This document shows, in pieces, positions 1-39,764 of a stretch of 64,000 nucleotides of DNA (the first letter of the stretch is position 1; the number at the start of each line of letters is the position of its first letter). The position numbers and the translations under genes are program-made. The notes beneath the pieces were generated by a model. The model saw only the letters and a list, made by a program, of their open reading frames with translations. It was not told where the DNA came from and did no database searches. Origin of the DNA: a virus (Duplodnaviria > Caudoviricetes). Location of the stretch: IMG/VR virus record IMGVR_UViG_3300021093_000004; one strand, given 5' to 3'.

Positions 1-15
1 TAATGGCCGCATTTA

Positions 16-1161
16 TTACTCGACAAAGCATACGTGGTTGGTTTGGGGTCCGGTTCCTACTATAGTTACCGGCAGACCAACCAAATCTTCAATGTCAAGT
101 ATGAAATCTTTCACCTTACTCGGTAGCTTGTTATAATCATTAGTCCCATAGCATGACCAATCGATATAGTTGGCAAAATTGAGGGCAATCTTCGTCGCCC
201 CGTTCGCAGCCACGGCGTCCAGAAGTTGTAATTTGGAGAAAGTGAACACCCGACGAAGCCGCTTGGTGACAGTGGTCAATTCGCCCTTCATAACATCTGG
301 TGGTGCACCACCGGCGGCAGCTACTTCGGCCCACGTAATTTCACTGTGGTCATCGTAACAATCACCGGAATATCCAACCGTATTGCCGTCTTCAATGACG
401 TTTCCCACGCGGATCGGATATGGTCTTATTACCAGATAAATATCGCCGATGAGAGAATGTCCGATTCCCATATCGGCGACGTTCTGAACTGCGGTTGTTC
501 CACGGCTGGTGCATTGTGGATAATGCGAACCGTGGTTGATATCGAGTGAGAACCCCTGTGATCCTTCATGCAGAGCGGTTTGCCCGTTTTGCAACAGGAA
601 TTTCAGAATCCGTGGAATTGACAGGTTCTCGGTGTTGCCGAGCTTAACGGTGAGTTCGTTCATCCGGCCAACAAATTGTTGAAGCTCTGGATAATCGCGT
701 GACAGCTTCAATTCCTTACGACGCATTACCTTGTCAGCAAGGAACGCCCCGCATCCTTGCATGGTGCTGGCGATGTGCTTTGTGCCGGTTTCGAGACTGG
801 CTTCTTGCTGTTTGTGTGAGTCGAGAATGACTCCAGCACGTGGATGAATGTGGGTGTTCTCTTGAACTCCGCAGATCTCGATTTCTTTCAGCATTTGGGC
901 CATGTCGTATGCCGATGACGCTCCTACGACGATGGCCGGTGAATAGTCTGTGCACCATTTCTTGAGAATTGCCGCCGATGGTAGTGCTTTAGCGACAAAA
1001 GCTTCTCCATCAATGTTGACCGCCGTATGTCCGGCGTTGCTCATGTTAGTTGTCGAGATTATTTCGGGTCGGTGTCTGTCTGCTAATGCAGTTGTGATAA
1101 GCCCTTTGCCGCAACTTCCCCACTGTCCATCAGTAACAACATTAAATCGGCCACTCAACAT
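16..1161 (-). CDS. purZ: PurZ-like 2-amino-2'-deoxyadenylosuccinate synthetase (adenylosuccinate synthetase family)
   Basis: GQWGSCGKG (Ser where PurA has Asp), NAGHT, EGSQGFSLD, TSR, RPYPIRV, ELTTVTKRLRRVFTFS, LNFANY (PurA has TKLD), GTGP. The family is certain; PurZ rather than PurA rests on these residues. Confidence 0.8.
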   Translation of the reverse strand: MLSGRFNVVTDGQWGSCGKGLITTALADRHRPEIISTTNMSNAGHTAVNIDGEAFVAKALPSAAILKKWCTDYSPAIVVGASSAYDMAQMLKEIEICGVQENTHIHPRAGVILDSHKQQEASLETGTKHIASTMQGCGAFLADKVMRRKELKLSRDYPELQQFVGRMNELTVKLGNTENLSIPRILKFLLQNGQTALHEGSQGFSLDINHGSHYPQCTSRGTTAVQNVADMGIGHSLIGDIYLVIRPYPIRVGNVIEDGNTVGYSGDCYDDHSEITWAEVAAAGGAPPDVMKGELTTVTKRLRRVFTFSKLQLLDAVAANGATKIALNFANYIDWSCYGTNDYNKLPSKVKDFILDIEDLVGLPVTIVGTGPQTNHVCFVE

Positions 1162-1236
1162 AGTGTATCTCCAAGAGCGGTGGTGTTTGACTACGCGGCT
1201 TCAATACCGCGTGGAACTTGTAGAAAGACCGTTTAT

Positions 1237-1623
1237 TTATCCGGTCGGTCGCAGGCGAGATGAAGTTGCGACATCATATCCATCGCCGTCCCACCCAGAA
1301 AGCTGAGCGGCGAAGTTCACTTCGTCGATCGTATCATTGCGATGTGCTCGTAATAGAGCTATAGCATCTGGCAAGTTCATAATTCTTACCAAGATGTCTT
1401 CAATATCACCATTTTCTGATCTGATAATCGATTGTACTGCAACTAAATTTCGCTGCTGAAGAAATCTTTTGATACGTTGAGCAGTTTGAATAGCGTGCAG
1501 TTCTCGTGCTATCCGGTCCAGCGACGCGGCTGTAGATTTTCGCTGTGCTTCTAACCATTCATCGCTTCTGGTTAGAAGATCAGCGTCATCGCCGATTTCA
1601 CTAATTAATGTCATTAGGCTCAT
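1237..1623 (-). CDS. hypothetical protein (helical)
   Basis: 128 aa ORF overlapping the upstream gene, same strand as neighbours. Confidence 0.65.
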   Translation of the reverse strand: MSLMTLISEIGDDADLLTRSDEWLEAQRKSTAASLDRIARELHAIQTAQRIKRFLQQRNLVAVQSIIRSENGDIEDILVRIMNLPDAIALLRAHRNDTIDEVNFAAQLSGWDGDGYDVATSSRLRPTG

Positions 1624-1957
1624 TGATTTTAACCCAGTGTTGTGGAACCCAAATTTTCCGACCCATGACTTCGATTCGGTAGAATAGTGGCTTCACGTCA
1701 CAAATGAGTGCAAATTCGTTGTACCATATATGTTCCGAATTGGTTACTTGAACCACATCTCCTATTTTTAATACCGCAAGACCATGTGGGTTTGTAATAT
1801 TTTCGGCTAGAGCCGCTTCTCCAGAAAATATCCCAACAGTGCCCAGATACCCACATACGGGGCACGTGACACACAACCCAGTAGGACCAACAACCACTTC
1901 GTTTGAATCAATCTCGAATGAAATGGAACAGTTCGGGCATATGAGATCTTTATGCAT
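1601..1957 (-). CDS. zinc-ribbon protein with C-terminal KOW/SH3-like segment
   Basis: CPNC...CPVC, LKIGDVVQV; the likely ATG at 1957 overlaps the stop of the DeoC-like gene. Confidence 0.65.
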   Translation of the reverse strand: MHKDLICPNCSISFEIDSNEVVVGPTGLCVTCPVCGYLGTVGIFSGEAALAENITNPHGLAVLKIGDVVQVTNSEHIWYNEFALICDVKPLFYRIEVMGRKIWVPQHWVKINEPNDIN

Positions 1958-2648
1958 CGAGTAATTCTCGAAGCTGATCCGGCTGAGACTGAAATTCTTT
2001 GATAATAGTCTTGGCTTGAGCGAGATTAACTCCAAATCTCGAAGCATTGGGGCATGCTGCCACTGACTTCAAACTGGCGATATTCCCACAAACCTTAACC
2101 GGCACCTTGATGATATCACGAACATATTGGATTTGCCGATTATGCTCGTCTGGGTTGGCTTTGCTTACTTGAAGTTTGAGTAGAGTATCAGTACGAACTA
2201 ACGCCGGTGTCCTAACGGTTAATAGACCACGGCACATTGCCATGATGTTATCATCGTTTCGGAGCGAAGTTCCAAGAACAAATCGGACTTCCGTCGCATC
2301 TGACAGATGTTGTTTCACGAACTCTGTCAGTGCTTTGGATTCGATTCTCGTCTCTAATTCGAGCTTACTGGGAGTCAGCAAGAATTCGAAACCATCCGTT
2401 TCGAGAGAATCGGTTGTTAGACCCCGCATTTTGTTGACACCAAAGATCTCACCCTTCGGCCAATCAATTGGTGTGATGATCTTGAATTTGCCCCCAGCCC
2501 GACTCCTAGCAATGAGCGCGTCTGATGATAAACCCGGATGGACGACAATGGCCGGGAATTTATATTTATGAGCAAGTTCTATAGATTCTTGAATCTCGTT
2601 CACTTGCATTACATCGATTTCTAATCGATTGAATACTGACCCACTCAT
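1950..2648 (-). CDS. DeoC (deoxyribose-phosphate aldolase)-like TIM barrel, divergent
   Basis: KYKFPAIVVHP, KIITPIDWPKG, VKVCGNI and ASRFG parallel the DeoC segments AVCVxP, TVxxFPxG, VKASGGI and ATRIG. LVRTDT sits where DeoC has FIKTST. Confidence 0.6.
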   Translation of the reverse strand: MSGSVFNRLEIDVMQVNEIQESIELAHKYKFPAIVVHPGLSSDALIARSRAGGKFKIITPIDWPKGEIFGVNKMRGLTTDSLETDGFEFLLTPSKLELETRIESKALTEFVKQHLSDATEVRFVLGTSLRNDDNIMAMCRGLLTVRTPALVRTDTLLKLQVSKANPDEHNRQIQYVRDIIKVPVKVCGNIASLKSVAACPNASRFGVNLAQAKTIIKEFQSQPDQLRELLDA

Positions 2649-3022
2649 GCTTTTAATTTCTCCAATGCGAACGTGAAAGCTTCATCAACCGACGAAAACC
2701 GAAACACGTTCGGTACAAAATAGAAGGTTTTCAATTCGGTAGTTGGCTCAAGGATCAGCACGACAGGCTTATTTGATACTATTGCTGCTCCGAGTTCAAC
2801 ATGAGTGCCACTCCTGGCCGGAGGTATCATGAAAAACAAATCGGCAGACGTAACACCATTTATTTCTGCGATTCCATATTGTTCCAATTCTGATTCAGAG
2901 AAAACTTGACCATGTGTGGTCCAATCATAAGATATTGATACACCGTGCCCACGAAATCGATCCATGACCGATTTTGCTTGATCTGAATTAAACAGGCTGG
3001 TTCCAACATATACGGTAGGCAT
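2645..3022 (-). CDS. nucleoside 2-deoxyribosyltransferase / dNMP N-glycosidase-like protein
   Basis: N-terminal VYVG, SADL, SGTHVELGAAI (conserved nucleophile Glu), KPVVLI; ATGA overlap with the DeoC-like gene. Confidence 0.75.
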   Translation of the reverse strand: MPTVYVGTSLFNSDQAKSVMDRFRGHGVSISYDWTTHGQVFSESELEQYGIAEINGVTSADLFFMIPPARSGTHVELGAAIVSNKPVVLILEPTTELKTFYFVPNVFRFSSVDEAFTFALEKLKA

Positions 3023-3059
3023 GATCGGTTAAATACAACTAAGATCACTGCGATATGAG

Positions 3060-4025
3060 TTATAATCTCTCAGCATGTGCAACAATTGTCGGCACAGATA
3101 TTTTATGGTCCATTTTGTTGAAGCGTTCTACGAAGTTCCATGGGTTTTCTGATGAACAGAACGTGAATTTTTGTCTTTCGCCCTCGTTGAGAACATCTGC
3201 CGCATAATCGTAAAATTCGGCTTCTTTCTGGAAACGTTCCCTTCGAACGTCTGGATTAACGTCTGGGTTGGTGCCATAGAAATGTAATTGCCCATTTAAC
3301 CCAGCTGGATTCATGTCGCAACCGAATATGTAAATGTGAGTATAACTCATCCAATACCCGAGTTGCATTGCTGCAAATACTGACGAACGCCCGATATGAA
3401 GCCCTTTTGTTAGGTCGCGGCTGAAGCCTTTGCCACCGAGATTCTTGACCTGCAATGAATTCTCTTTTTGCCGCTTGATTCCGGTACTATTGAAGATCAG
3501 GCCATTGTAACCGGCCCATAAATCTTCATGACGTCGCATTTGAGATTGGTCAAAGAATGCCCAGTGAGTTGTAGGCCAAATACGAGCGTCGGGCTTATTA
3601 ATCGACAATGTATGAATATTGGGATATCCTTTGAATTTCTCTAGTGGCACTTCGTTGATTGAAGGACCATTCCCAATTATAATTAAAATCTTGTTATAAC
3701 CATAATTCCTCAGTTGTTTGATTTTTACCAGCGAATCTGGGGTTATATCTCGACTGGTATATTTTACATTTGGTACCTTCTTGATGGCATTTTTGCGAGT
3801 TACGTGCTGTTTAGATACAGCCGCCGCCACCGGGATTTGTGGTGCGGGCTGAGATTGTTGGATTTTAACATGGACTCGGCGGTTGTTCAATTCATTGAGA
3901 TTTGCCGCCTGTCCGCTGGACGGCTTTACAACGATCTTTACAGACGACGAAGGGGTCTTAACGACTGTGCGTCTTCGCACCAGTTGTGGGCGAACCTTCA
4001 TTGTCACAATGTGATTGTTCGACAT
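3060..4025 (-). CDS. Maf/DUF115/GT42-like transferase domain with long basic N-terminal extension
   Basis: IIIGNGPSI, TLSINK, SSVFAAMQLGYWMSYTHIYIFGCDM. Confidence 0.65.
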   Translation of the reverse strand: MSNNHIVTMKVRPQLVRRRTVVKTPSSSVKIVVKPSSGQAANLNELNNRRVHVKIQQSQPAPQIPVAAAVSKQHVTRKNAIKKVPNVKYTSRDITPDSLVKIKQLRNYGYNKILIIIGNGPSINEVPLEKFKGYPNIHTLSINKPDARIWPTTHWAFFDQSQMRRHEDLWAGYNGLIFNSTGIKRQKENSLQVKNLGGKGFSRDLTKGLHIGRSSVFAAMQLGYWMSYTHIYIFGCDMNPAGLNGQLHFYGTNPDVNPDVRRERFQKEAEFYDYAADVLNEGERQKFTFCSSENPWNFVERFNKMDHKISVPTIVAHAERL

Positions 4026-4260
4026 CTGCTGTTTTCAATAAATTCTTCAAAAGATCTGCGAGGTAGCTCGCAAGCACACCTTTATTTAAGAATTTTGAGA
4101 AAACAACGATATCTGAATCTGTATCATTTGTGTCAACGCAGACTATCAGACCCTCACTGTGGGATTGAAGTACAGATTTTATATCATCTGGTACAGGCTT
4201 GTTTGGAACAACTCGCAACCGTGCTAACTCTAGGCTATCCGTGTTTGGATCGCCGCCCAT
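3958..4260 (-). CDS. hypothetical protein
   Basis: 100 aa ATG ORF between the sigma-like gene and the Maf-like gene. Confidence 0.5.
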   Translation of the reverse strand: MGGDPNTDSLELARLRVVPNKPVPDDIKSVLQSHSEGLIVCVDTNDTDSDIVVFSKFLNKGVLASYLADLLKNLLKTADVEQSHCDNEGSPTTGAKTHSR

Positions 4261-4334
4261 GCAGAATCTCCAAAAAATTTCCCCAAATGTATAAAATACA
4301 TCGCCACAACGGTTTGATACTTGACAAAAAACGC

Positions 4335-5123
4335 TCAGTTTGATTTAATAACACGACGGCTGTCAGTGTGAAGGCGAAAACTGCGGTGAGAATCTGGGAG
4401 AGTCCCGGCCTTCATATCATCCATCAACTTGAACATGCCATTCTTTTGTGTTTTACGGCGGTTCATGATGCTGAACATGCAGCGGTGAATTGTAGTTGTA
4501 AGCAGATTGAACACTGGTGCCCTTCCGGGAGTATAGACCAGTTTCTTTGCTCGCAATTTATTGGTGACTTGAAGAAGAGCTTCGTTTGAAAAATCTAGCT
4601 GCTCTTCTTCGGACGGGAGATTGAATTTCATGGCAATGCCTTGGCAGATTAAATTAACGTCTTCCAGCATCGCATGCCATGATTGTTCTGTTGGAATTTC
4701 GCGGATGTACCCATCATCCTGTAGTTTCGGAATGATCTCGTCGTATTGTACGAATATGTCAGTCTCAAGATGATGAATCTCTGAGTCCGAAAGGAGGGAC
4801 AATTCTTCTGCTTGTGGAAGGACACGCAATGCGGTTTCTCCGTTGCGATGCATCATTCCCTCCGCAGGAATCATACCATTATTGCTTTCGAAGTGGAAAG
4901 GCAGCCCGGTTGCGATACAATGCAGCCGTACAGGAGACATTGCGTCAGGCAGTGTTTTCCCGTTCTTCAGGATAGGTTGGCCATCTGCTCCGATAGCAAC
5001 CCCGATCACTTTGGTCCACAGTAACCCAAGTGCACGGTACGGTTCCAAGTCGGGAACGGATGACGATAAAAGCCATTGGAACCAACTTTTCTCTAGCTTG
5101 TTCGAATCGCAATATTGACCCAT
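4335..5123 (-). CDS. phage sigma factor, T4 gp55-like (late), with N-terminal insertion
   Basis: YCDSNKL...ICQGIAMKFN...LDFSNEALLQV...APVFNLLTTTIHRCMFSIMNRRK resembles gp55-type regions 2.1-2.4; AGGAG precedes ATG 5123. Confidence 0.55.
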   Translation of the reverse strand: MGQYCDSNKLEKSWFQWLLSSSVPDLEPYRALGLLWTKVIGVAIGADGQPILKNGKTLPDAMSPVRLHCIATGLPFHFESNNGMIPAEGMMHRNGETALRVLPQAEELSLLSDSEIHHLETDIFVQYDEIIPKLQDDGYIREIPTEQSWHAMLEDVNLICQGIAMKFNLPSEEEQLDFSNEALLQVTNKLRAKKLVYTPGRAPVFNLLTTTIHRCMFSIMNRRKTQKNGMFKLMDDMKAGTLPDSHRSFRLHTDSRRVIKSN

Positions 5124-5299
5124 GGTTGTCTCCTTGCCACAAAATCGTGTGATCAAAGGAGAGAAATACGACAGATTTCTTCTAGATCGAATAATCCATT
5201 GGTGTGCAACGTTCACGGGATGAACAAAGGAGTAACCGAGTGCCAATCATCCGACAAATGCCGGGGCTTTATCTCCGGGGGTCTATCGCTAACATTACC

Positions 5300-6553
5300 A
5301 TGGTGGGACTGTCTCCAGAGGAGAAAGCTCACATCGAGCTAGTTTTCGATCACGTCATCCACCACGAAGAGATGGTGCGGCACAAACAGAAGGTTATGAA
5401 GGAATTTGGTGTCACAATTCGTGCCGACTATGCCGACGATCGAGCCGCCGCTGAGCAAGAATTCAATATCGCCGTCTGGCGTGGGCTTGTCAGCATCTTC
5501 TATCACCGCACTTACGAATTCGAATGTACGAATTGCGGCGCGACCGCCAGCCTGACCCAACGCGGCAAGCCCAAGCCCATCGACCGAATGGTAACTCCGT
5601 GCCCAGTTTGCCACATGGCTGAAATCGTTGACCCCGGATGCTCTGACCACAATCCGGGCGATCTTGTCAATTACACCGAACTCCAAGAGCGTTATAAGCT
5701 CGTCGGGTTCGGGACGCCGACGTTCAAGAGCTGCATTCGGCCCATCCCGAAAGAGAAGAAATACGATAACCCAGACGAGATCATCGGGTGTCCCAAGCAG
5801 TTGAAACGATTCTTCGGCGAGTTCGTCTGGAATTACTTCCGCCAGCAGATTAAAGAGAACAAGCGGAAAGAACACAACAAGACGCCGGTGGAAATCACTG
5901 GCCCAGCAGATCAAATGATCGTCGAACTCATCTTGAGTCTCTGCTCACGAATGAATGTCGATTACAACCGGCACCACAAAGTCGAGCCGGTGAATGGCCG
6001 ATACACGATCGATCTGCTTGGCCTGCTCACGCCACCGGAATTTTCGATCGAACTCGCCCTTGTTCGAGTGTTGGCCGAAAGCCATGGAGTCGTCGTGACT
6101 ACCACGGCTCAAGCGATCGAAATAGCAGTTCACCCTAATCCTCCGACAATCAAAGTGTCGATAGTTCGTGCTGCGCATGTTACCATCATTGATAACCAAC
6201 TGACCGTGACTGACGATGAAGAGAATTCGGGATTCTCAATCAGTCAAGTCAGTTACAAGACTGTAGGAGCAAGACGAATGGACCAAGATGATCACGTGCA
6301 GACCACAGATATCAGGGAAGCCGCGACTAGGACGCGGGCAGCACTTCCTGATGGAGATTGCCAATCTGTCTACGACATTTATTGTCAGATCGGACCAGTA
6401 TACGATAAATTCTCTGAAGTCTACGGCAACGGAACGCCGAGAATTAATCACATCGCTGATTTTCTCGGCATCACCGCACGAGCCGTGAAGCAGTGTCGCG
6501 ATGTTATCCAAGTTCAGTGTCTTGCGAATGATTTCGTTCCGGCATCAACTTAG
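5300..6553 (+). CDS. divergent sigma70-family factor with zinc-ribbon insertion
   Basis: Region-2-like AEQEFNIAVWRGL and FVWNYFRQQIKENKRK separated by CTNC...CPVC; region-4-like ALPDGDCQSVYDIY...HIADFLGITARAVKQ. Start uncertain (5204 or 5300). Confidence 0.55.
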   Translation: MVGLSPEEKAHIELVFDHVIHHEEMVRHKQKVMKEFGVTIRADYADDRAAAEQEFNIAVWRGLVSIFYHRTYEFECTNCGATASLTQRGKPKPIDRMVTPCPVCHMAEIVDPGCSDHNPGDLVNYTELQERYKLVGFGTPTFKSCIRPIPKEKKYDNPDEIIGCPKQLKRFFGEFVWNYFRQQIKENKRKEHNKTPVEITGPADQMIVELILSLCSRMNVDYNRHHKVEPVNGRYTIDLLGLLTPPEFSIELALVRVLAESHGVVVTTTAQAIEIAVHPNPPTIKVSIVRAAHVTIIDNQLTVTDDEENSGFSISQVSYKTVGARRMDQDDHVQTTDIREAATRTRAALPDGDCQSVYDIYCQIGPVYDKFSEVYGNGTPRINHIADFLGITARAVKQCRDVIQVQCLANDFVPAST

Positions 6554-7502: not shown

Positions 7503-8189
7503 TTAGTCATTTTCTATAAACATTTTTAAGAGTTCATTAGCCAAATAATCTCCTGCATCTCGATCAGAGGGATAGTGAAAACCTGCTTTTACACGATAAT
7601 CACCAAGCTCCTTGCCTAATTTGGCGAGATCCTTTTTATGTTTTGGATACAGTTTCGATAACCATTTTGCCATAAAAGTCCCGATTACTGCGTGTGTCGA
7701 AGGATAAGAGGGTGAGCCGGTGGTGTTTCCCTTTGGTATTGTCCTGTCTTTCATAGATTTCAGAAGTTGATAAGGTCTTGCTCGGTCATATTTAACTTTG
7801 TGTTTCAAACTTATTGTGGAAAGTTCTTTTGAAACTTTACTAATTTTTTTGACTAATTGTTTATTTATCTCAACGTCTTTTTTTTGTAGTAAATCTACAA
7901 ACAATAATTCAATATCAGGAACATCTTGTTTTTTAATTTTATTCAAATCTTCCGCAGAATTTGCGTCGAGATAATCTAGAATTACTTCTAGTTCTTTTTG
8001 AGTTTTTGGACTTTCGTTTTTGGGTGGTTGCGGTAATTCTATTTCTTGCCATTTTGGGTTAAAATGCTTGACGGGCTTATCAATCAAATGTGCATCTTGT
8101 TTAAGCTTGCCATATCTCAAATCGGATAGTGGGGTTTTGCCCTCCAGAAGACGTGATGATTTGTCTAACGCAATTTCCGATAAAAGCAT
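7503..8189 (-). CDS. PAP2-superfamily phosphatase
   Basis: KVKYDRARP, PSYPSTH and RVKAGFHYPSD match the three PAP2 motifs; visibly AT-rich. Confidence 0.85.
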   Translation of the reverse strand: MLLSEIALDKSSRLLEGKTPLSDLRYGKLKQDAHLIDKPVKHFNPKWQEIELPQPPKNESPKTQKELEVILDYLDANSAEDLNKIKKQDVPDIELLFVDLLQKKDVEINKQLVKKISKVSKELSTISLKHKVKYDRARPYQLLKSMKDRTIPKGNTTGSPSYPSTHAVIGTFMAKWLSKLYPKHKKDLAKLGKELGDYRVKAGFHYPSDRDAGDYLANELLKMFIEND

Positions 8190-38456: not shown

Positions 38457-39764
38457 GTGTGTTTTGAGGATGTGAGCACTATCTATTTTTACACATTGTT
38501 TGATCCCACGTCCGGTAAGCCGCGATGTGCGGGCATACGTATTGGCGACAAGATTACTGTTTATGATCTATTCCGCCCCGGTGCTGGTAAGAAAATTCGC
38601 ACTATCAATGAGACTATAGCCAAAATCCGCGAGTTTCTTATAACATCGAATGATCGTGGCCACACGATCATAGCTTCTAACTTCAAAAAGCTCCTGCATA
38701 CGTATGGTCTGCCATTAGATTCTCGACAGTATAATGTGTATGATGTTCACATCGATAATCCGGCTAATCCGATTCGTCCGACCAACAGTCAATCAAAAGA
38801 CAATTTGCTGTTGCGAAAGATTCTAGAACGAATGGCATCGGGCCATCACTATGAATACCAGAAATTAATATCTAATGCTGCCGTAGTTTACCAAGATTTG
38901 GAAAATCGTGGCCTTTTTATTAATGACGAATTATTTAGACCAGAATGGTCTATGATTACATTCTCTGGTCGTAGCAAGACTACTGGATTCAATATTCAAG
39001 GATTTCATGAAGACCACTATGTCCGAACAGTTGATGCATCAATGAATAGTGTGCTGCTGCATTTTGACTGGATTTCGGCTGATATTCGTGCTGCGTCATT
39101 ATTATCTGGGGACCCATTATTAACTAAAAGTTTCGAATCCTCTGACCCGTACACTGAAATGGTCGGGTTCTTCCAGAAGCACAGAGCCGGGGAGATAGAC
39201 AGAGAGGAATGTAAAAAGTATCTGCTGCGTTCTATAAACTCGATGGACATTGAAAGCGATGCATTTGTCATTTATCAGCAATTGGGTGAATGGATACTGA
39301 AATGTTATAATATCACTCGTAAATCTGATGGATTCCTTGAAACATTATTACATCGTAGGTTTAAGGTTTCTCGTGCGAAAAATGCATTGGCAGTGTTGAA
39401 TGGAGCTATGCAAGGATCAGTCGCCCATGCAATGCACGCTGCTATTAGAAGGATTTGGGAGCGTCTTGGGTCATATATTTTGGTCGAGATTCATGACTCT
39501 ATTATTATGTCGGTTCCAAATGATTCGGCTGTGATACGGGCTACGATAGATACTGTAGCACCGATAATGATGCATCCGTTTTCGGGATTATTAGCAGATG
39601 ACCCATTGTTTCCAGTCAGAGTGAGTATTGGAAAGCGTTGGAAGAAATGGCAATTATTAGAGACTCATCGAGCGTCTGGAATTGAACGTGTCCAAAAAAC
39701 GCGACAAGCAACTCCAACGACAGCGATCGAAGGCCAAGAAACGGGAAAACCGGCTGAAGCGTGA
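38457..39764 (+). CDS. minimal family A DNA polymerase-like protein (palm/fingers, no clear exonuclease)
   Basis: TFSGR, motif A HFDWISADIR, motif B REECKK, NGAMQGSVA, motif C VEIHDS. Confidence 0.8.
   Translation: MCFEDVSTIYFYTLFDPTSGKPRCAGIRIGDKITVYDLFRPGAGKKIRTINETIAKIREFLITSNDRGHTIIASNFKKLLHTYGLPLDSRQYNVYDVHIDNPANPIRPTNSQSKDNLLLRKILERMASGHHYEYQKLISNAAVVYQDLENRGLFINDELFRPEWSMITFSGRSKTTGFNIQGFHEDHYVRTVDASMNSVLLHFDWISADIRAASLLSGDPLLTKSFESSDPYTEMVGFFQKHRAGEIDREECKKYLLRSINSMDIESDAFVIYQQLGEWILKCYNITRKSDGFLETLLHRRFKVSRAKNALAVLNGAMQGSVAHAMHAAIRRIWERLGSYILVEIHDSIIMSVPNDSAVIRATIDTVAPIMMHPFSGLLADDPLFPVRVSIGKRWKKWQLLETHRASGIERVQKTRQATPTTAIEGQETGKPAEA

Follow-up and report, generated by a model that had tools for sequence, protein, structure and literature searches.

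Phages with 2-aminoadenine (Z) genomes are known from small sipho- and podoviruses, in which deoxyadenosine (dA) is excluded by DatZ/MazZ or by DutZ/DmtZ. The locus described here raises the question of how dA would be excluded by a jumbo phage that encodes PurZ and neither DatZ nor MazZ, and what part two small enzymes encoded upstream of its purZ gene would take. It lies at positions 16-3022 of a 64,000-nucleotide (nt) stretch of viral DNA (Duplodnaviria; Caudoviricetes), hereafter the window, which corresponds to bases 41,153-105,152 of the 157,281-bp IMG/VR virus record IMGVR_UViG_3300021093_000004 (G000). An original prediction, made from the letters of the window, had proposed a candidate new Z-pathway module composed of an enzyme of the nucleoside deoxyribosyltransferase (NDT) fold, a DeoC-like protein and PurZ. 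Our tentative reading, to which we give slightly less than an even chance, is that the region encodes the nucleotide-pool part of a lineage-specific Z-DNA pathway with an NDT-fold partner and a partner derived from deoxyribose-phosphate aldolase (DERA). In order of transcription, the block contains the following genes and open reading frames (ORFs):

3060-4025, minus strand: MptE/WaaZ-like protein with a GNGPS motif (weak matches to PF01973, phrog_4603 and TIGR04437)
2645-3022, minus strand: NDT-fold protein of 125 amino acids (aa) (PF05014, 1.7e-4; AlphaFold2 model; Foldseek)
1950-2648, minus strand: DERA-fold (DeoC-like) TIM barrel of 232 aa (AlphaFold2 model; Foldseek)
1601-1957, minus strand: ORF118, an N-terminal zinc ribbon and a C-terminal beta-rich domain (Zn_ribbon_4, 2.4e-5, below the cut-off)
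1237-1623, minus strand: ORF128, a helical protein with no family match
16-1161, minus strand: PurZ of 381 aa, jumbo-phage clade I (matches to phrog_1211, PF00709 and PurZ structures in the PDB)
1-12 (G000:40382-41164), minus strand: opening codons of a 260-aa TIM barrel of the sugar-phosphate isomerase/epimerase type, immediately after purZ (PF01261)

The coordinates bear out the layout described in the original prediction, with all genes on one strand: the stop codon of the NDT-fold gene and the start codon of the DERA-like gene share an ATGA (aaagcATGAgtggg), the two small ORFs that follow overlap by 23 nt, and purZ, preceded by GGAG, starts (1161) after a 75-nt gap from the end of ORF128 (1237). 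The zinc-ribbon ORF was listed as 1601-2047; a start at 1957 is likely because the resulting 118 aa fit the 106-111-aa homologues of relatives. The same gene order was present in every related locus fetched and is therefore not a chance arrangement. A promoter and terminator scan of positions 1-5400 returned counts near chance, with no intergenic terminator within the block.

The 381-aa protein matched phrog_1211 (2.6e-62) and PF00709 (2.7e-37), as well as the structurally characterized PurZ proteins of S-2L (7odx, 8e-38) and phiVC8 (6fko, 2e-36), and among phage records it was most similar, at 31-38% identity, to PurZ proteins of phages known or presumed to be Z phages. Its best PDB sequence match was Pyrococcus PurA (2.4e-39), and it scored 211 bits with the NCBIfam archaeal-type PurA model (cut-off 368) against 220 bits with the PurZ model NF038379 (cut-off 300), values that would also suit an ordinary archaeal-type PurA making AMP for salvage in a phage with canonical DNA. 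We consider this explanation very improbable. As both scores fall under their own cut-offs, the protein belongs to a divergent lineage, and Asp13, which is essential in PurA, is replaced by Ser in its P-loop (GQWGSCGKG), as in 24 of the 24 phage PurZ-like sequences aligned; Asp13 is retained by E. coli PurA and by a separate PF00709 paralogue of a complete relative, G014. PurZ signatures have been described at T262 (in TTVTK), which forms the dGMP 2-amino pocket, and at F295/Y298 (in LNFxNY), which form the ATP site (bioRxiv 10.1101/2025.10.22.683976). In the alignment both regions match PurZ and not PurA: the window protein reads ELTTVTKR and LNFANYID, phiVC8-type PurZ ELTTVTKK and LNFCNYLS, and E. 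coli PurA FGATTGR and LTKLDVL. In a midpoint-rooted maximum-likelihood tree, in which the PurA types were E. coli PurA and the G014 paralogue and archaeal PurA was left out, the PurA-type sequences split first and the PurZ0 proteins of Ghobes and Wayne second, and the window clade joined the BpsS-140, phiVC8-like and SH-Ab PurZ proteins (support 84/87); the protein is thus placed by this tree on the PurZ side and not on the PurZ0 side. Together, the P-loop Ser, the TTVTK and LNFANY motifs, the PHROG and PDB matches and the position in the tree make the purZ call of the original prediction credible.

Several related genes were encountered alongside the window purZ. A second clade (II) of large-phage PurZ-like genes includes that of Flavobacterium phage MaF61 (PQ858689.1 118051-119394, L046), a cultured 168-kb phage from lake water whose protein has the P-loop Ser and whose gene is located between scaffold and terminase genes. 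The Asp-containing gene of G014 (G014:C1:258596-259693, L047), which encodes a second adenylosuccinate-synthetase-like protein of 471 aa with a GDGGKG P-loop and a very long branch, may be a true PurA-like auxiliary gene beside PurZ. At L008:11726-15364, the PurZ ORF extends to 1,212 aa owing to an insertion of ~390 aa that is probably an intein. Bacillus phage vB_BpsS-140 carries a weak NDT-like ORF (MH884512.1 29607-30083, L048) ~7 kb from its purZ.

The original prediction had noted no recognizable DatZ or MazZ in the window, and this extends to the whole 157,281-bp record, in which searches for HD (PF01966), MazG (PF03819) and MazG-like (PF12643) domains found none. Neither HD nor MazG was found in 15 related IMG/VR records, including the complete relatives G003 (354 kb, 98% complete) and G014 (408 kb, 100% complete), and PF04447 (DUF550) was absent from the record and its relatives in a search made without a positive control. 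Because HD and MazG are missing from near-complete relatives, datZ and mazZ do not lie just outside the window, and the reservation on this point in the original prediction does not apply. The phage belongs to a lineage of freshwater jumbo phages, uncultured and with genomes of about 350-410 kb. Elsewhere in the record are genes that could support a Z pathway, and a DNA polymerase gene:

G000:15132-15740 (region G000:15132-17355, L033): Dut paralogue of 202 aa, beside ThyX and RNase H
G000:10845-11381: MutT-like NUDIX protein
G000:154776-155825 (L034:9777-10826), minus strand: PurB-like lyase of 349 aa with a short C terminus (TIGR00928, 275 bits)
window 38457-39764, plus strand: 435-aa protein with a very divergent DNA polymerase domain of family A

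The Dut paralogue and the NUDIX protein are candidates for the step from dATP or dGTP to the monophosphate. The Dut paralogue, in which an insertion separates motif 1 from motif 2, might be a dATP/dGTP pyrophosphatase of the DutZ kind, and the complete relatives have two Dut genes each; we rejected it as a demonstrable DutZ, as all five canonical dUTPase motifs are present and the sequence cannot decide. Among six genomes, the PurB-like lyase was found in the window's own record only, with none in the five relatives searched. The family A polymerase is kept in all six relatives searched; a search for a family B polymerase found none, which leaves the family A protein as the sole replicative polymerase detected.

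The NDT-fold protein matched PF05014 at 22.1 bits, below the gathering threshold of 28.8, and precomputed PF05014 matches were present in 12 of 17 homologues. Its AlphaFold2 model (predicted local distance difference test, pLDDT, 94.6) gave MilB, DNPH1/Rcl and BcmB as best Foldseek matches in the PDB, ahead of true transferases; the best 50 of 96 matches at E <= 0.001 were 49 MilB, DNPH1/Rcl, BcmB or NDT structures and one TIR-domain protein. Residues Y5, E53, D61, R70 and E76 are invariant among 18 homologues. Tyr5 and Glu76 correspond to the catalytic Tyr and Glu of NDTs, the latter within G-T-H-V-E-L-G, which fits the canonical G-x-x-x-E-L-G motif, so that the catalytic Glu is intact as originally predicted; E53 or D61 is the candidate third acidic catalytic residue. 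Arg70 lies six residues ahead of Glu76, presumably at the site that contacts the 5'-OH in NDTs and makes room for the phosphate in Rcl. In work on MilB F17Y, a Tyr in place of Phe at the first catalytic position reportedly goes with 2'-deoxy substrates, and by this analogy Tyr5 suggests a preference for them. These features point to a 2'-deoxynucleoside 5'-monophosphate N-glycosidase as the probable function.

An enzyme of this kind in a Z pathway has been described recently. DmtZ, an NDT-family protein of PurZ0 actinophages, converts dAMP to adenine and moves the deoxyribose-5-phosphate (dR5P) to the Z base, and its authors reported Rcl/DNPH1 and MilB as its best structural matches (Poubanne et al., NAR 2026, PMC12884076). 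PF05014 has further been associated with dZ contigs, together with the finding of a dA-preferring NDT (Yang et al., bioRxiv 10.1101/2025.10.22.683976). The window protein would be a functional analogue of DmtZ that was independently recruited. The proposal in the original prediction that dA is depleted at the dAMP level therefore stands in part: the NDT model is nearest to (d)NMP N-glycosidases, but the dATP-to-dAMP step has candidates only. As a new idea, NDT-family dAMP hydrolysis with Z salvage had been anticipated by the publication of DmtZ (PMC12884076).

The AlphaFold2 model of the DERA-like protein (pLDDT 90) was matched in the PDB by Foldseek to DERA or proteins derived from it in each of the top 50 cases, one of them a designed Kemp eliminase (E 1e-12; template-modelling (TM) score 0.75-0.81), and ESM Atlas structure matches were to DeoC. 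At the sequence level, the protein had no Pfam, PHROG or PDB match, and a PDB profile search gave chance matches only; the NCBIfam deoC model TIGR00126 matched marginally (E 0.011) and at the N terminus only (residues 16-70). PF01791 was absent, with no relevant Pfam family, from the window protein and 41 diverse members of its family, which therefore form a distinct unannotated DERA-derived family. The strands of the barrel would align with E. coli DeoC as follows:

beta4: E88, equivalent to D102
beta5: VRFVL against LKVII, with R122 equivalent to K137
beta6: LVRTDT against FIKTST, with R152 equivalent to K167, the Schiff-base lysine
beta7: VKVCGN against FKPAGG, with K185 equivalent to K201
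beta8: RFGVNL against RFGASS, the phosphate site

An exhaustive profile search collected 209 clusters at 50% identity, and conservation was counted over 131 full-length representatives. Arg occupies position 152 in 126 of 131 (96%) and Lys in the other 5 (4%), position 122 is Arg in 94% and position 185 Lys in 93%; Glu or Asp occupies position 88 in 99%, the phosphate-binding glycine G188 is kept in 92%, Lys at position 73 is present in 100%, and E103 is likewise invariant and new relative to DeoC. Replacement of the Schiff-base lysine by Arg excludes the canonical DERA aldolase mechanism, and the statement that DeoC acts on dR5P, on which the original prediction had drawn, is not transferable to this protein despite its DERA fold. 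The protein may instead be an aldolase with a relocated nucleophile, or may catalyse another reaction on a phosphorylated deoxysugar or nucleotide.

Under the first of these options the original prediction would hold entirely: the protein would have dR5P aldolase activity, with K185 or K73 taking over as Schiff-base lysine and Arg152 providing the positive charge that lowers its pKa. In our view this has a minor but appreciable probability. The D102 and K201 equivalents (E/D88 and K185) are kept, K73 is invariant, Lys recurs at position 152 in five members, and the gene is coupled to that of an enzyme with dR5P as its expected product; but K137 too is replaced by Arg, Pfam DeoC does not match and TIGR00126 is marginal, and we know of no DERA with a relocated nucleophile. 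In a domain-fusion check, the longer members of the family (284-358 aa) had no informative Pfam match. The 41-sequence alignment contained no stretch conserved enough for a related-locus search, and a related-locus scan with P0277 gave no match. A complex prediction for the NDT-fold, PurZ and DERA-like proteins returned a score of 0.00 and was not used either way.

We then consider how tightly the three genes are linked. Each of the 25 DERA-like loci with enough flanking sequence has a PurZ gene 0-4 kb downstream in the same orientation, as do L042 and an ENA contig, and an NDT-fold gene lies immediately upstream of the DERA-like gene in 27 of 29 loci, usually with a start/stop overlap. The upstream NDT genes belong to two subfamilies of 125-150 aa and 180-220 aa (PF15891-like), which were mutually undetectable by jackhmmer. 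Synteny alone says little in the near clade, where it covers the entire block between a 303-aa gene upstream and a ~1,650-aa protein downstream, and the distant members are the informative ones: with 24-30% identity in the DERA-like protein, L027-L029, L038-L043 and one ENA contig maintain the linkage. Other neighbours vary among loci, with isomerase, ORF118 and ORF128 lost and RNase T, epimerase and ThyX gained. At L012:11478-12662, window-type genes flank a purZ slot that is filled from the second large-phage clade (31% identity to the window PurZ), an in-situ gene replacement. Occurrence of the pair in relatives that lack purZ had been named in the original prediction as evidence against it; in the contexts examined, no NDT/DERA-like pair came without purZ. 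In MaF61 and vB_BpsS-140, by contrast, PurZ is present and the NDT/DERA-like pair was not found in a search that used a positive control. As PurZ thus occurs without the pair and the DERA-like gene never without PurZ, the DERA-like gene implies PurZ and not the converse.

The strictness of this association could also mean that the DERA-like barrel serves the PurZ branch itself, either as a non-homologous lyase that frees fumarate from succino-dZMP and uses its two conserved Arg to bind the carboxylates of the succinyl group, or in dGMP supply, and that the NDT-fold enzyme is accessory. The link between the DERA-like and PurZ genes is the strictest of all (25/25 loci), extends to direct adjacency in L027, L040 and L041 and stays where the NDT gene is missing (L005 and L011); a barrel that keeps the phosphate site and has Lys changed to Arg at two central positions would be suited to binding an anionic nucleotide; and five of the six genomes searched have no PurB gene. 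Yet the start/stop overlap of the DERA-like gene is with the NDT gene and not with PurZ, the window's own genome encodes a PurB-like lyase, and to our knowledge a lyase of this kind has no precedent in the DERA fold. Host PurB, moreover, serves known Z phages without difficulty (PMC12884076), and we regard a role in the PurZ branch as quite unlikely.

The neighbouring genes offer a different explanation, in which the NDT-fold, DERA-like, MptE/WaaZ-like and isomerase-like proteins belong to a pathway that modifies sugars or nucleosides and has nothing to do with Z, such as glycosylation of DNA or virion proteins, and lie near purZ by lineage synteny. The MptE/WaaZ-like gene is found upstream of the NDT/DERA-like pair in 24 loci, all distant ones included, a position as conserved as that of the DERA-like gene; for its product, which has a basic low-complexity N terminus, ESM Atlas features and structure point to MptE-like/WaaZ clusters, and the gene could be part of the module or merely syntenic. 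The barrel gene that follows purZ matches PF01261 (1.7e-12, 48 bits; L024:18383-19165, minus strand) and falls into Atlas clusters labelled 'sugar phosphate isomerase/epimerase' (TM score 0.9). A DegT aminotransferase, a methyltransferase and a GT2 glycosyltransferase are inserted in the L004 block, an NAD-dependent epimerase follows PurZ in L027, and the top structural matches of the NDT-fold protein, MilB and BcmB, act in nucleoside-antibiotic sugar pathways. Against this, distant relatives retain the NDT-fold, DERA-like and PurZ genes but neither the isomerase nor the remaining sugar genes (the PF01261 gene is kept in 17 near-clade loci and missing from distant ones), and the DERA-like family was never seen apart from PurZ. 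Two independent studies also tie NDT-family enzymes experimentally to Z pathways (PMC12884076; bioRxiv 10.1101/2025.10.22.683976), and we consider a pathway unrelated to Z unlikely.

Returning to a Z-DNA pathway with NDT-fold and DERA-derived partners, we propose the following sequence of steps. PurZ would condense dGMP and Asp, with ATP, to succino-dZMP, and host PurB would complete dZMP; a PurB-like lyase is encoded in the record as well. The Dut paralogue or the NUDIX protein encoded elsewhere would convert dATP to dAMP, from which the NDT-fold enzyme, by analogy with DmtZ, would most likely release adenine and dR5P, with transfer of dR5P to a purine base as a possible further activity. The translationally coupled DERA barrel would most likely bind and dispose of dR5P by a non-canonical mechanism, thereby rendering dA removal irreversible; it keeps the equivalents of D102 and K201 as well as the phosphate site, and the nucleophile could be K185 or the invariant K73, or else the chemistry could be of another kind. 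Within this scheme, we give roughly equal weight to a rewired aldol cleavage and to an unknown chemistry of the barrel.

A number of observations weigh against this scheme. We infer Z in the DNA of this phage from PurZ alone, and the equivalents of the Schiff-base Lys and K137 are Arg in 96% and 94% of the family, so that dR5P cleavage is putative. The assignment of the beta4-beta8 residues to those of DeoC was made by motif likeness and secondary-structure register, without superposition, and hhalign of the DERA-like family against DeoC, used as the E. coli sequence alone or as a profile of 8 sequences, aligns beta2-beta3 only, with a probability below 1%. A homologue search with E. coli DeoC yielded only sequences that were 80% identical or more, too little diversity for this purpose. 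By sequence, the NDT-fold protein is not a homologue of DmtZ (its family hidden Markov model gave E 0.05 and 2.8 bits against Ghobes gp53, no detectable homology, and tblastn against phage records found no match), and its base specificity is argued by analogy. With its canonical motifs and its position beside ThyX, the Dut paralogue may be an ordinary dUTPase. The two loci L005 and L011 keep the DERA-like gene and PurZ but have no NDT gene, and MptE-like and SbcC-like genes are conserved near the pair as well. Finally, all loci come from one broad lineage with long-range synteny, and the counts are therefore not independent.

Comparison with known systems defines what would be new. The DmtZ, DutZ and PurZ0 system of actinophages Ghobes and Wayne (PMC12884076) is like that of the window in having no DatZ or MazZ, an NDT-superfamily enzyme near purZ for which DNPH1/Rcl and MilB are the nearest structures, a catalytic Tyr and Glu, and a Dut paralogue in the genome. 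It differs in that the third catalytic residue of DmtZ and its specificity residues (D12, P57, W124) lack clear equivalents in the window NDT protein, which has the invariant Arg70; in that its synthetase is PurZ0 whereas that of the window groups with PurZ in the tree; and in that these actinophages have no DERA-fold gene, whereas the NDT gene of the window is coupled to one, in a jumbo phage of ~360 kb. NDT-M2, from dZ-enriched aquatic contigs (bioRxiv 10.1101/2025.10.22.683976), also belongs to PF05014, is statistically associated with dZ phages in aquatic viromes and prefers dA, but it acts on nucleosides and co-occurs with DatZ and PolA without lying beside purZ, whereas the window NDT gene is within the purZ block and DatZ is absent. 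Relative to DNPH1/Rcl, MilB and BcmB, which are its best structural matches and share the Tyr/Glu pair, the window NDT protein is shorter (125 aa) and 13-23% identical, with Arg where Rcl has Ser.

The classical PurZ/DatZ/MazZ/DpoZ phages (S-2L, phiVC8 and SH-Ab 15497) share Ser14, T262, F295/Y298 and a family A polymerase with the window phage; unlike theirs, its lineage has no HD-domain DatZ, MazG or DUF550, its PurZ is at 31-38% identity, and its PolA is very divergent and matches the DpoZ model at 17.7 bits only. The DERA-like protein has the (beta/alpha)8 fold of DeoC/DERA (PF01791; BH1352 6d33 and E. coli 1ktn; TM score 0.75-0.81), the beta6-beta8 motifs, the phosphate-site glycine and the D102 and K201 equivalents, but it differs by the change of Lys167 and Lys137 to Arg, by the new invariant K73 and E103, by the lack of profile membership and, unlike DeoC, by being exclusively phage-borne in the contexts examined.

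The designation as a candidate new module thus holds for the DERA-derived partner and the phage lineage and not for the role of the NDT enzyme, which was published for DmtZ (compare NDT-M2). Since NDT-family dAMP hydrolysis is already in the literature, the novelty is confined to those two aspects, and the NDT component, by analogy, adds a new protein, without sequence homology, to a functional kind that was described only recently. We found no description of an obligate DERA-fold partner or of a jumbo-phage setting in the literature searched. A broader proposal, which we think doubtful although well within reason, is that the DERA-derived barrel is a new enzyme of modified DNA that occurs only with PurZ and carries out either a rewired destruction of dR5P or a new deoxynucleotide reaction, and that with the NDT-fold enzyme it would constitute a third independently evolved means of adenine exclusion. 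The lineage would extend PurZ to jumbo phages of about 350-410 kb that recur in lake water, with a third dA-exclusion enzyme set, and the tightly linked unannotated DERA-fold family is a defined candidate for a missing step as well as a natural aldolase scaffold minus the canonical nucleophile. The NDT-like and DERA-like enzymes are small and confidently modelled, which should ease their expression, and are of practical interest for the enzymatic synthesis of Z-DNA and nucleotide analogues.

The record has a G+C content of 45% and an estimated completeness of 43% by CheckV. The same DNA was found in 24 Logan contigs, all from 2018 lake-water metagenomes, and in at least 21 runs from that year, probably of one campaign. 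Megablast of the first 8 kb of the window against phage records gave no match, the DERA-like, NDT-like, PolA-like and MptE-like proteins likewise had no tblastn match among 50,697 phage records, and by these sequence searches there is no cultured close relative. Family-profile searches with ORF128 (Pfam, PHROG and NCBIfam) returned no match; its homologues occupy the same slot in 19 loci, the distant L029 among them, and those of ORF118 do so in 15, with the ORF missing from several relatives. We rejected endonuclease IV as the identity of the PF01261 neighbour, as its look-alikes are sugar-phosphate isomerases/epimerases. MptE-like homologues of ~670-680 aa are encoded at L005:5959-7974 and L008:7513-9561, the L005 copy with intein/LAGLIDADG matches. 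The phage also carries unusual cargo, namely a PAP2-superfamily phosphatase of 228 aa (window 7503-8189, minus strand) and a sulfatase-family protein of 436 aa (G000:13828-15138).

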